DNA from: Candidatus Nomurabacteria bacterium GW2011_GWD2_36_14
GTDB taxonomy: Bacteria; Patescibacteriota; Minisyncoccia; Phycocordibacterales; UBA9973
Direction: 5' to 3'
Length of the DNA: 64,000 nucleotides
NCBI GenBank assembly: GCA_000991405.1
Contig: LBRL01000001.1
Location: 222,172 to 286,171, forward strand
Shown piece after piece: positions 10,005-28,470 of this stretch. A program made the position numbers and the translations under genes. The notes under the pieces are model-generated. The model ran no database searches. It saw only the letters and a list, made by a program, of their open reading frames with translations, and was not told the origin of the DNA. How positions within the stretch are numbered: position 1 is the stretch's first letter; each line of letters opens with the position of its first letter.

Positions 10005-11192
10005 ATGCCTAAAATAAACCCAGACATAGAATCATTTGCGAGAATTAAAGTTATCGGTATTGGCGGATCAGGCAAGAATGCCTTAAACCATATGATAGCT
10101 TCCAAAGTTAAAGGTGTGGAATTCATAGTAATGAACACCGACGTGCAGGATCTACACAACTCTTTAGCCGAAAAGAAGGTTCATCTTGGTAAAAACTTAA
10201 CAAAAGGCCTAGGAGCTGGAATGAATCCAGATGTAGGTAAAAGAGCTGCTGAAGAAACAAAAGCAGAAATTCAAGATGTTATAAAGGGTGCTGACATGGT
10301 CTTCATAGCTTGTGGTATGGGAGGAGGTACCGGTACAGGTGCTGCCCCTATCGTTGCTCAAGCAGCCAAAGAACAAGGAATACTGACTGTCGCTGTGGTT
10401 ACCAAGCCATTCTCTTTCGAAGGAAATCAACGTATGAAGTTGGCTGAAGTAGGTCTATCTGAACTTGAAGGTGAAGTAGATGCTATTCTTGTGATTCCAA
10501 ATGATAGACTTATCGTTATCTCTGGAAAAGATGTGGGATTCAGACAAGCTTTCGCACTTTGTGATGAAGTACTCAAGCAAGCAGTTGAAGGTATCTCAGA
10601 ACTTATTACTACTCCGGGTATGATCAACGTGGACTTCGCCGACATCAAGGCTGTCATGTCTGATGCAGGATCAGCTCTCATGGGAGTTGGTATCGCCGCT
10701 GGAGAAGGACGTGCTGAGAAAGCTGCCCTTCAAGCTATCAACTCTCCTCTTCTTGATCTTTCAATTTCTGGGGCTAAGGGAGTTCTCTTTGCTATTTCAG
10801 GTGGAGATGATCTAACTATCCATGAAATCCAAGAAGCAGCCAAGGTTATAACAGAATCTATCGACAAGGAAGCAAAAGTTATCTTTGGAACTATCAGCGA
10901 TGAAAAGCTTAAGAAGGGCGAAATGAAAGTTACTGTTATCGCTACTGGATTCCCTACTGATATGCCAAAGCGTTCACTATTCCAAATCCACCAAAAGGCT
11001 ACTGAAGCTACATTGAACTCTTCCAGTAAAGAAGAAGTTATCCAAGCTGTGAATAAAGAAGTGGCCAAAGATTCTTCATCAGATTATTTTAAAAAGTCAG
11101 ACAAAACTGAAAAAGTAGAAGACGATCTATTTATCGATGATACAGAAGATTGGAGTACAGTACCTGCATTTTTGAGAAGAAATAAGAAATAA
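10005..11192 (+). CDS. ftsZ: Cell division GTPase FtsZ
   Basis: GIGGSGKNA...GGGTGTGAAP tubulin signature. Start set at MPKINP. Confidence 0.95.
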   Translation: MPKINPDIESFARIKVIGIGGSGKNALNHMIASKVKGVEFIVMNTDVQDLHNSLAEKKVHLGKNLTKGLGAGMNPDVGKRAAEETKAEIQDVIKGADMVFIACGMGGGTGTGAAPIVAQAAKEQGILTVAVVTKPFSFEGNQRMKLAEVGLSELEGEVDAILVIPNDRLIVISGKDVGFRQAFALCDEVLKQAVEGISELITTPGMINVDFADIKAVMSDAGSALMGVGIAAGEGRAEKAALQAINSPLLDLSISGAKGVLFAISGGDDLTIHEIQEAAKVITESIDKEAKVIFGTISDEKLKKGEMKVTVIATGFPTDMPKRSLFQIHQKATEATLNSSSKEEVIQAVNKEVAKDSSSDYFKKSDKTEKVEDDLFIDDTEDWSTVPAFLRRNKK

Positions 11193-25634: not shown

Positions 25635-25720
25635 ATGTGTATTATATCAAATATAAATAAAAAAGAAAGACAAAAAACAGTCCAAAACGTAATATAAACA
25701 CCATATCCCCTCAAAATCCT

Positions 25721-25746
25721 CAGATAGGGGCTCAACCCCTATCTGG
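25721..25746. repeat. REP-like GC hairpin, copy A; the transposase stop codon lies in its loop
   Basis: cagataggggctcaacccctatctgg. Confidence 0.8.
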
Positions 25747-26436
25747 CAAACTCTCTATAACAACATTCAAATTTTCATCTTCAAGAAGAGATTTCTTTCC
25801 TCTTTCTTCTCTCACTATAGAAACTATTTCATCACAATGTTTTTTAAACTTATTTATTCCTCTAAAGATTTCTAAAATTCTTTTCCCTTCTTTTTTAGAT
25901 ATTATATTGAACTTATTATTTTCATACTCAAAATCTCCCGAGAAAACTAAATCACTTTTGTTTTCTGGAATATTATGAATTAAATAATTTTTATTTACAT
26001 AGCCTATCAATTTATTAAAATAATTATCATTAGCTATCAATTGAGATTTAAATCTACCTTGAAATAAAACTCCAGATCTAGTGTTTTTAATATTAAAATA
26101 TGAAGTATAACCACCAGATAACTTATGCATAAATTTAGAAATACCATTATCTGAAACTTGTTTTAAAATCAAATGAAAATGGTTGGGATTTAAACAATAC
26201 CCTACTACTTCCACTAGTGATTCCCCAGATAGGGGCTCAACCCCTATCTGGGGATTTGATTTTAATTTTCGCAAATTTGCTAGACTATTTATTTTATCTT
26301 CTCGATTAAATTCTTTTATGCTTTCGATAAAGCGATAAATATCATTTTTATCAGTAAAAATATCTCGTTTATCTACCCCGCGATTATAAATATGATACAT
26401 CTCTCCTGTTATTAGAGGTTGTCTTCTTATACTCAT
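25732..26436 (-). CDS. IS200/IS605-type HUH Y1 transposase (RAYT-like)
   Basis: MYHIYNRGVDKRDIF, HFHLIL (HUH), GVLFQGRFKS. Contains an in-frame REP hairpin insertion. Confidence 0.75.
   Translation of the reverse strand: MSIRRQPLITGEMYHIYNRGVDKRDIFTDKNDIYRFIESIKEFNREDKINSLANLRKLKSNPQIGVEPLSGESLVEVVGYCLNPNHFHLILKQVSDNGISKFMHKLSGGYTSYFNIKNTRSGVLFQGRFKSQLIANDNYFNKLIGYVNKNYLIHNIPENKSDLVFSGDFEYENNKFNIISKKEGKRILEIFRGINKFKKHCDEIVSIVREERGKKSLLEDENLNVVIESLPDRG
26223..26253. repeat. REP-like GC hairpin, copy B, inside the transposase ORF in frame (encodes PQIGVEPLSGE)
   Basis: ccccagataggggctcaacccctatctgggg. Confidence 0.8.
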
Positions 26437-26463
26437 ATTTTTACTATACTATATTTATAATCT

Positions 26464-26491
26464 TCCAGATAGGGGTTGAGCCCCTATCTAG
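26464..26491. repeat. REP-like GC hairpin, copy C (inverted orientation)
   Basis: ccagataggggttgagcccctatctagg. Confidence 0.8.
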
Positions 26492-26508: not shown

Positions 26509-27138
26509 TTATTCAACTTTTGAGTATCTGTTTTCTATATAATTATTAAAATCAGGATTATATTTTTTTATCATTTCCATAATTTTTTCTTTATCTTCCT
26601 TGCTTTTATTTTTCAATAATAAAATTAATGTATTCTTCATAACATAATCTAGACTTCTGTCTGTATATCCCAATATTAAATCGAGTGCTTTTTCTTCGTT
26701 TTCTTCGTTACCTTCGAGTATATACAAGCTTGCCACTAAGTCTGGACGACTATCAGGAAGATTCAAGGCAAATACCAGCGCTTGTTCTATCTCCTTTTTG
26801 TTTTGATTTTTTTTATTATCTTCAATAACATCTTCTATAAAATTAGTATGGCTAAAATAAGTTTCTCCTTTTAATCCTTTTCTGGCCATCCACATCATAA
26901 ATGGATCATCCTTTATATTTTTCTTTTTTTCAGGCGTTATTGCATTTTCAGGTATCGGCTCACCAGATGATATTTTGTTTATATCATTAATTAATTCTGG
27001 TGGAGTAGTTTGTGGAGGAATTTCAGGCTTATTAATTTTAAATTCAGGGCCTTTCATACACATATTATATCTTTTATATATAAGTAAAGCAAAATATAAA
27101 CAGTGTATTCTGTCAAATTCCTTGATTAATATGCACAT
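26509..27138 (-). CDS. Hypothetical protein (start uncertain; internal Met candidates)
   Basis: ORF only. Confidence 0.4.
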   Translation of the reverse strand: MCILIKEFDRIHCLYFALLIYKRYNMCMKGPEFKINKPEIPPQTTPPELINDINKISSGEPIPENAITPEKKKNIKDDPFMMWMARKGLKGETYFSHTNFIEDVIEDNKKNQNKKEIEQALVFALNLPDSRPDLVASLYILEGNEENEEKALDLILGYTDRSLDYVMKNTLILLLKNKSKEDKEKIMEMIKKYNPDFNNYIENRYSKVE

Positions 27139-28390: not shown

Positions 28391-28406
28391 TTAAAAATTA
28401 TGAATT

Positions 28407-28437
28407 AAAAATGCGTTGGCTTTGCCAACGCATTTTT
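28407..28437. terminator. Bidirectional terminator between rpsA and pth
   Basis: aaaaatgcgttggctttgccaacgcattttt. Confidence 0.75.
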
Positions 28438-28470
28438 AATTTCTGTATTTAAATTATTAATTATTAATTC

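Follow-up and report, generated by a model that had tools for sequence, protein, structure and literature searches.

A RAYT-like Y1/HUH gene of Patescibacteria with palindromic hairpins at three fixed places, one of them in frame within the gene

The window analyzed here is a 64,000-nucleotide stretch of Candidatus Nomurabacteria bacterium GW2011_GWD2_36_14 (contig LBRL01000001.1, positions 222,172 to 286,171). It contains a small gene for a Y1/HUH protein that resembles the transposases associated with repetitive extragenic palindromes (REPs), known as REP-associated tyrosine transposases (RAYTs). GC-rich hairpins lie before the start of this gene (UP), in frame within it (IN) and at its 3' end (END). 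In window coordinates the features are:

26465–26491, no strand assigned: UP hairpin, before the start of the gene; perfect 9-bp stem at 26467–26489, loop inverted relative to IN and END.
26443–26448, minus strand: -10-like box TATAGT, 6 nt before the ATG; TATAAT in relatives (clade alignment A3).
25732–26436, minus strand: Y1/HUH (RAYT-like) gene encoding 234 aa, identified from sequence, Pfam and alignments.
26222–26254, no strand assigned: IN hairpin, in frame; perfect 14-bp stem, residues 61–71 (NPQIGVEPLSG).
25721–25746, no strand assigned: END hairpin at the 3' end of the gene; C-terminal PDRG encoded by its left arm, stop codon TGA (25732–25734) in its loop.

A pattern search for the palindrome CAGATAGGGG-loop-CCCCTATCTG, a 25-nt GC hairpin, returned exactly three sites in the 64 kb, at 25721–25746, 26226–26251 and 26465–26490, the last with one mismatch and an inverted loop, and the hairpin pattern was matched in 0 of 100 shuffled sequences. 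Folded as single-stranded DNA (ssDNA), UP, IN and END reach -10.3, -17.1 and -10.4 kcal/mol, respectively (z-scores -4.6 to -6.8). At 14 bp, IN has the longest stem of the three window copies, and in several relatives its stem extends to 16–20 bp. These results bear out in full the layout given in an earlier reading made from the letters of the window (the sequence-only reading), which had described a REPtron-like unit, a RAYT-like Y1/HUH gene with cognate hairpins on either side, with three GC hairpins around and in the gene, the upstream one inverted (its loop is oriented opposite to the other two), one translated in frame as PQIGVEPLSGE and one carrying the stop codon in its loop. At this last copy the protein terminates in ...LPDRG*. 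A second in-frame TGA at 25720–25722 would serve as a back-up stop were the END loop inverted, and relatives end at exactly the TGA that corresponds to it (PDSGKAAI*). Apart from the REP-like hairpin, no repeated hairpin family was found in the window, which has a GC content of 36%, and a permissive Rfam search matched the hairpins to no family. A CRISPR array was rejected because there are three copies only, at spacings of 240 and 505 bp, and an assembly artefact was rejected because the identical architecture is present in dozens of independent assemblies.

The 234-aa product of the open reading frame (ORF) 25732–26436 (minus strand) contains all three IS200/RAYT-type motifs pointed out in the sequence-only reading, namely MYHIYNRG, HFHLIL (within NPNHFHLIL) and GxLFQGRF (as GVLFQGRF), and passes the Pfam cut-off for Y1_Tnp (PF01797; 29.1 bits, cut-off 23), aligning to profile positions 38–120 only. 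The HUH motif is H86-F87-H88, the putative catalytic tyrosine is Y146 within GYVNKNY, and N150 is conserved. H88, Y146 and N150 are invariant, and H86 nearly so, in an alignment of 27 relatives, and all four are invariant in an alignment with Y1 relatives from outside the candidate phyla radiation (CPR), which have YIELNP at the Y motif. An AlphaFold2 model, run on a shallow 28-sequence alignment and used solely for the order of secondary structures and the fold family, predicts strand 13–18, helix 30–45, a disordered loop 46–74 and strands 75–82 and 87–93, with the HUH motif borne by strand 87–93 and Y146 in helix 137–150. The top 26 Foldseek matches of the model in the PDB are all Y1 transposases (2a6m, 4er8 and 2xo6 among them; probability 0.93–1.0), with E-values of 2e-3 to 4e-2 for a query model whose mean predicted local distance difference test (pLDDT) score is only 56, and the best fold matches are IS608 TnpA, E. 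coli TnpAREP (4er8) and ISDra2. With alignment A1 as the profile, nothing relevant was found among PDB sequences, Pfam gave no helix-turn-helix (HTH) or DnaA_C match in the C-terminal region, and PHROGs gave no match for the protein or the neighboring ORF. By Pfam, conserved residues and predicted ferredoxin-like fold, the protein is a member of the Y1/HUH superfamily.

Compared with annotated non-CPR Y1 transposases at 19–25% identity, which are Y1_Tnp proteins with YIELNP or YIHQNP, one of them with a Bac_DnaA_C tail (subclass 2.1 type), the protein has a 26-aa insertion at residues 46–71. The IN copy is placed in the alphaA–beta2 loop, N-terminal to the HUH motif, and the linker before this motif is longer, as the sequence-only reading had proposed. 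The insert loop is specific to the family, being missing in the non-CPR relatives, and is predicted to be disordered; a CPR member in which the hairpin is missing (L074; loci are numbered with L) is without exactly the seven residues QIGVEPL.

The three-site layout is not particular to the window. More than 2,700 relatives of the protein were found, the named ones from Paceibacteria and Nomurabacteria, and 80 loci from species-representative genomes were fetched (41–83% identity), all of them Patescibacteria (Nomura-, Paceibacterota, Moran-, Staskawicz- and Zambryskibacteria). Using a hairpin finder, we located hairpins at the same three places in most of 82 related Patescibacteria loci at 41–86% identity. 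The peptide segment encoded by IN is kept in 27 of 27 close homologs (67–87% identity), with Q63, I64, L69 and S70 invariant, and the C-terminal PD(R/S)(G/A) is common to nearly all of them. The sequence-only reading had taken the in-frame copy as a possible mark of recent self-targeted insertion, and had suggested an alignment of homologs as a check. No empty-linker state was found among the 27 close homologs, and the same sites are occupied down to approximately 41% identity, which contradicts a recent origin.

A test with fixed windows, which needs no prior hairpin finding, gave a perfect stem of at least 8 bp at UP in 58%, at IN in 52% and at END in 65% of 81–82 loci, and in 0–11% of loci for four control windows inside the ORF. 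The presence of the three copies is correlated: all three were seen in 30 of 83 loci and none in 18, compared with approximately 16 and 6 under independence. Three matching copies were counted in 39 of 71 loci, which is an undercount, given that the automatic reference hairpin was an unrelated terminator in L014, L029, L031, L039 and L041. IN has decayed in L017, L018, L021 and L022 while the flanking copies persist.

The letters of the hairpin are unrelated between lineages (for example, CACCCAGCGCC..., TCGGGTGTTGGACACCCGA, TTCCGGACGTTGGACGTCCGGAA, ACTTGGAAGCAAGGCTTCCAAGT and AATGGACACCCGGTGTCCATT), and copies within one locus are usually alike, with compensatory changes in the stem. In a relative with 67% identity, the three sites all read CAGATAGTGG-TTAA-CCACTATCTG. 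Similarly, QIAARPLSG variants of the internal peptide pair with the C-terminus PDSGKAAI*, and both peptides are one hairpin, CAGATAGCGGC-AAG-GCCGCTATCTG, in two reading frames. When 38 internal hairpins were aligned on their centers (alignment A4), 93.8% of cells were paired versus 63% after shuffling, double-change cells numbered 121 versus 35, and the covariation score was 0.80 versus 0.22 for shuffled and 0.03–0.11 for slid controls. These 38 hairpins were picked for having a stem, and the fixed-window test provides independent support. Since the peptide encoded by IN is entirely different between lineages while the flanking protein columns remain aligned, the constraint is on the nucleic acid. 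In L008, L016, L024 and L080, one hairpin differs in its stem core from the other two with the foot unchanged, and these loci may be snapshots of replacement underway.

Counting from the center of the hairpin in 65 loci, 59 have G at position 6, 61 have a purine (A or G) at position 7 and 59 have a pyrimidine (T or C) at position 8, and the foot consensus is NYRG, within the stem and on both arms. The foot is ATAG in 21 of these loci, including the window, and GTAG in 7. Hence, the GTAG tetranucleotide that the sequence-only reading had proposed to look for is present as a variant of the family consensus, but it is not the foot of the window itself. The inner 4–5 bp and the triloop are variable, with compensatory changes, and loop orientation flips among copies and among close relatives. 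Of 30 loci compared, 16 have a UP loop that runs opposite to IN and END, and in 22 UP and END are mutually inverted, which is the usual REPtron arrangement. In some distant relatives, inverted dimers of the locus-specific hairpin (REPIN-like pairs) flank the gene (L043 9830–9869 and 10655–10700; L048 9892–9935; L052 10677–10717; L012 10484–10543), and in L079 such a dimer lies inside the gene (10177–10222).

Upstream of the gene, a TATAAT box that ends 6–7 nt before the ATG is conserved in the clade (alignment A3). The right arm of UP ends 16 nt upstream of the -10-like box in the window and 15–17 nt upstream in most aligned relatives, and the UP hairpin occupies the -35 position relative to this box. 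The position of the box suggests a leaderless or near-leaderless mRNA, and autoregulation through the promoter-proximal hairpin is possible, judging from the arrangement of these elements. A sigma-70 scan of the window gave sites no more numerous than in shuffled sequence, and the sole terminator-like call of the sigma-70/terminator scan is the IN hairpin read antisense. On the plus strand (26222–26264), antisense to the gene, IN is followed by TTTGATTTTA and scores terminator-like, which is probably a by-product of the adjoining lysine-rich codons.

In all nine of nine relatives at 76% identity or more, the gene is at the same locus, with the order S1 <- / Y1 -> Lactamase_B_3 -> small ORF -> gyrA. 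Identity in these syntenic relatives is 87–92% for GyrA, 86–95% for S1 and 76–85% for Y1. Given this synteny and a divergence comparable to that of its neighbors, we regard the gene as domesticated in the clade of the window, in which it is present as a single copy. In a more distant genome (L068), S1 adjoins Lactamase_B_3 with no Y1 gene or hairpin between them, and a REP footprint was looked for at this empty junction and none was seen. Distant family members have other gene neighborhoods. Several genomes contain two or three divergent paralogs (30–60% identity, none near-identical), and each paralog has its own hairpin type in both genomes in which each had clear hairpins (n = 2). A second divergent Y1 paralog (30–42% identity to the query) lies less than 10 kb from the first in several genomes (L019 6364–6798, minus strand; L077 19548–20189; L082 7216–7683, minus strand; L068 17490–18017, minus strand; L099 7507–7935). 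In the window, an ORF of 209 aa with no Pfam or PHROG match (26509–27138, minus strand) lies between the UP hairpin and the S1 gene, with its stop codon 18 nt from the hairpin. It is missing in nine of nine syntenic relatives, in which the S1–Y1 gap is approximately 170–500 bp, and because of this absence we consider it a window-specific insertion.

Whether the hairpin occurs elsewhere was a further point of the sequence-only reading, and it does so as a dispersed REP-like repeat in related genomes, with no copy in the other 63 kb of the window. A metagenome scan with CAGATAGNGGNNNNNCCNCTATCTG matched at least 115 stretches, and 80 loci were kept for analysis. Among the matches listed, 69 of these 80 loci are solitary copies without the gene and 11 have the gene (approximately 6:1); the solitary copies are on AT-rich contigs, most with a GC content of 0.27–0.44, are mostly intergenic and frequently have extended stems and A-run/T-run flanks. 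The N pair that was left unconstrained is complementary in 69 of 71 of these solitary copies, and therefore they are real hairpins. In nine samples with both a gene locus and solitary copies, a solitary copy is identical to a gene-linked copy in four (Ga0172367, Ga0265292, Ga0172379 and JACCEC01), one base off in a fifth and without a match in the remaining four. Around the 80 genomic loci, approximately 1.1 Mb of flanking sequence contains only some 8 copies at more than 1 kb from the gene, which together with the metagenome result indicates a handful of copies per genome and fits the absence of copies from the rest of the window. A scan of viral contigs for the hairpin gave 0 matches and so no sign of a phage origin.

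About five solitary copies among the matches listed (metagenome loci L116, L165, L093, L160 and L087) are in frame in unrelated ORFs, where they read QIE.KPLS or PDRGLASIW, and every other frame of the palindrome contains a stop codon; the hosts include a 419-aa membrane-type protein, a low-complexity linker and a linker of an HMA-like protein. Many solitary copies form the center of longer perfect palindromes with 5' A-runs and 3' T-runs, such as caaacaaaaaaatact-hairpin-agtatttttttgtttg (L126 10068; L106 4816; L095 9098; L141 5001; and others). These look like bidirectional intrinsic terminators built on the repeat.

Taken together, we consider it probable that the locus is the REPtron core of a RAYT/REP-type system specific to Patescibacteria, in which the intragenic REP is ancestral. 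The hairpin, a perfect palindrome with an NYRG double foot (ATAG in the window), a variable 4–5-bp GC core and a triloop, would be the cognate REP-like element of the Y1 protein. E. coli TnpAREP and IS608 TnpA have reportedly been shown to bind their hairpins and to cleave and rejoin DNA at the foot. By analogy, the Y1 protein would bind the hairpin extruded in ssDNA and cut and rejoin at the foot, and this activity would spread and renew hairpin copies genome-wide and overwrite the gene-linked copies with the variant current in each genome. Such overwriting would explain that copies usually match within a genome and differ between genomes. The three gene-linked sites would persist as the sole places in or next to the gene that tolerate a 25–33-nt palindrome, and the promoter-proximal copy may also let the protein repress its own transcription. 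The gene itself is no longer mobile in the clade of the window.

Several observations weigh against the Patescibacteria-specific RAYT/REP reading. The protein misses the cut-off of NCBIfam REP_Tyr_transpos (NF047646; 32.2 bits versus 80), its Y motif is YVNKNY, in which the P of the class-2 signature Y---NP is replaced by Y151 across the family, and its structural model is of low confidence (mean pLDDT 56). Hairpin binding and cleavage are proposed by homology to annotated relatives at approximately 20–25% identity. The foot in the window is ATAG rather than GTAG, no dispersed copy is present in the other 63 kb, and the copy number of the repeat is far below that of classical REPs. Two hairpin types occur within a single locus in L008, L016, L024 and L080. 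Finally, 18 of 83 members have an intact-looking protein and a hairpin at no position, and hence the protein may have a hairpin-independent role.

Of the other explanations, a recent self-targeted insertion of a REP into its own gene in this genome has next to no credibility. The IN copy is indeed perfect and undecayed, and the in-frame solitary copies in other genes of related genomes indicate that new insertions occur, but the segment is in 27 of 27 close homologs with Q63, I64, L69 and S70 invariant, the hairpin is at the same loop position down to 41% identity, and linker length is similar family-wide. It is also very unlikely that the gene is an autonomous IS200-like element, with UP and END as its ends and a 770-bp unit that moves by single-strand 'peel and paste'. 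Such an element would be in line with hairpins that tightly enclose the ORF at both ends, different neighborhoods in distant lineages, two or three paralogs in several genomes, and one genome with the S1–Lactamase_B_3 junction without the gene. However, the window has one copy, the paralogs are only 30–60% identical with none near-identical, and the gene is syntenic in nine species-level relatives with a divergence comparable to neighboring housekeeping genes. In addition, the ends are identical perfect palindromes rather than distinct left-end and right-end (LE/RE) structures, solitary hairpin loci outnumber gene loci approximately 6:1 among the matches listed, and the Y motif reads Y---N as in class 2, where IS200 elements have Y---Q (PMC6006769).

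The hairpins could instead be RNA or transcription signals (terminators, mRNA stabilizers or attenuators) unrelated to the activity of the protein, which we regard as unlikely. The A-run/T-run flanks of many solitary copies, like those of bidirectional intrinsic terminators, would fit such a role, as would the positions of END at the 3' end of the gene and of UP next to the stop codon of ORF 26509–27138. Nevertheless, IN has no U-tract in the sense direction, UP appears to be upstream of the transcription start, and a terminator role leaves the usually matching copies in and around the Y1 gene and the separate type per paralog unexplained, as it does the free flips in loop orientation; there is also no Rfam match. 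An improbable explanation, too, is a selected self-recognition circuit, in which the copies are kept since the protein must bind its own gene, be it for promoter autoregulation, for pausing at IN and END, or as master copies whose loss would destroy the gene. In favor of such a circuit are positions that do not change across the family, the placement of UP precisely at -35 relative to a conserved -10 box, an IN stem that is the longest in the window (16–20 bp in several relatives), and the correlated presence or absence of the three copies. On the other hand, IN has decayed in L017, L018, L021 and L022 though the flanking copies are kept, 18 members are without any hairpin, and a tolerance-only model explains the positions equally well. 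More speculatively, and with considerable doubt on our part, the locus could be a minimal RAYT–REP replicator of reduced CPR genomes, in which the protein binds its own three hairpins, sets its expression and keeps master copies that renew the dispersed ones.

Elsewhere in the window, approximately twenty unique terminator-like hairpins are spread across the sequence. One at 28403–28441, just past the S1 gene, has an 18-bp stem with A/T-run flanks and overlaps a sub-threshold Rfam match to the SpF25 small RNA (29.7 bits versus 48); it is most likely an ordinary terminator.

The Patescibacteria system shares several traits with the REPtrons of E. coli and Pseudomonas (Nunvar 2010; Ton-Hoang 2012; Messing 2012; PDB 4er8). 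As in REPtron/RAYT systems (TnpAREP; TnpAY1 subclasses 2.2 and 2.5), the Y1/HUH gene is single-copy and vertically inherited. As in the E. coli and Pseudomonas REPtrons, it is flanked by mostly inverted cognate palindromes. In relatives of the window the palindrome probably also forms a dispersed repeat, paralogs had separate repeat types where both showed clear hairpins, and the foot, NYRG in the family and ATAG in the window, comes near GT[AG]G. In contrast to REPtrons, the CPR protein has a Y---NY motif, approximately 16% identity in its fold match and a score below the NCBIfam cut-off, and its repeats, perfectly palindromic with a double foot that lies within the stem, occur at very low copy number and at set distances from the gene, and two of the sites overlap coding sequence. 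With IS200/IS608 TnpA (subclass 1.1), the shared traits are the HUH/Y1 fold, a short unit with a hairpin at each end and, putatively, ssDNA chemistry, whereas the Y---Q motif, near-identical multiple copies, distinct imperfect ends and a size of approximately 150 aa are missing in the window gene.

By motifs and size, the closest group is subclass 2.1/TIRYT (Bertels group 1), with YH(I/V)xxRG, NH[YF]H, FQ, approximately 230–240 aa and a C-terminal tail, a type also seen in the best annotated relatives found (Y1_Tnp proteins with YIELNP or YIHQNP, one with Bac_DnaA_C). However, subclass 2.1 is reported to be without REPs (PMC6006769) and has no 26-aa loop, and the C-terminus of the window protein has no HTH or DnaA_C match. 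A close parallel to the internal copy is offered by TnpAY1 subclass 2.4 (Bertels group 4), for which Quentin, Siguier, Chandler and Fichant (2018, PMC6006769) describe REPs inserted in frame within tnpAREP. An intragenic, frame-preserving REP in a RAYT gene is thus already known, contrary to the suggestion in the sequence-only reading that such an insertion is unusual. Both have a REP within the RAYT gene with the frame unbroken, double-foot REPs and the HuH motif NH[IFV]H (PMC6006769), and the inserted segment is a peripheral extension in models of subclass 2.4 (PMC6006769) and a predicted disordered loop in the CPR protein. Unlike subclass 2.4, the CPR family has one fixed site before the HuH motif (residues 61–71; HUH at 86–88) and an extra copy that spans the stop codon. 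The motifs are WQ and YIxNNP in subclass 2.4 and FQ and YVNKNY in the CPR protein, and the hosts are Cyanobacteria and Bacteroidetes in the former and CPR bacteria in the latter. REPs within coding regions of unrelated genes have been described by Di Nocera et al. 2013 (PMC3733652). The text of Quentin et al. makes no mention of candidate phyla or Parcubacteria (PMC6006769), and in the full-text literature searched we found no paper describing RAYT/REP systems in CPR bacteria. New here are the host group, the fixed intragenic site, the REP-embedded stop codon, the Y---NY motif and the very low copy number of the repeat.

Among domesticated transposases that coexist with repeats of their own, RAYT/REP systems have been studied best. 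The present family extends them to Patescibacteria in a compact and readable version, with a handful of repeats, three of them position-locked and two within coding sequence. Given that hundreds of lineages allow side-by-side comparison of hairpin and protein, the co-evolution of the enzyme and its target becomes tractable, including the question of which protein residues track the variable stem core. The family also serves as a natural experiment on selection versus tolerance of intragenic REPs.

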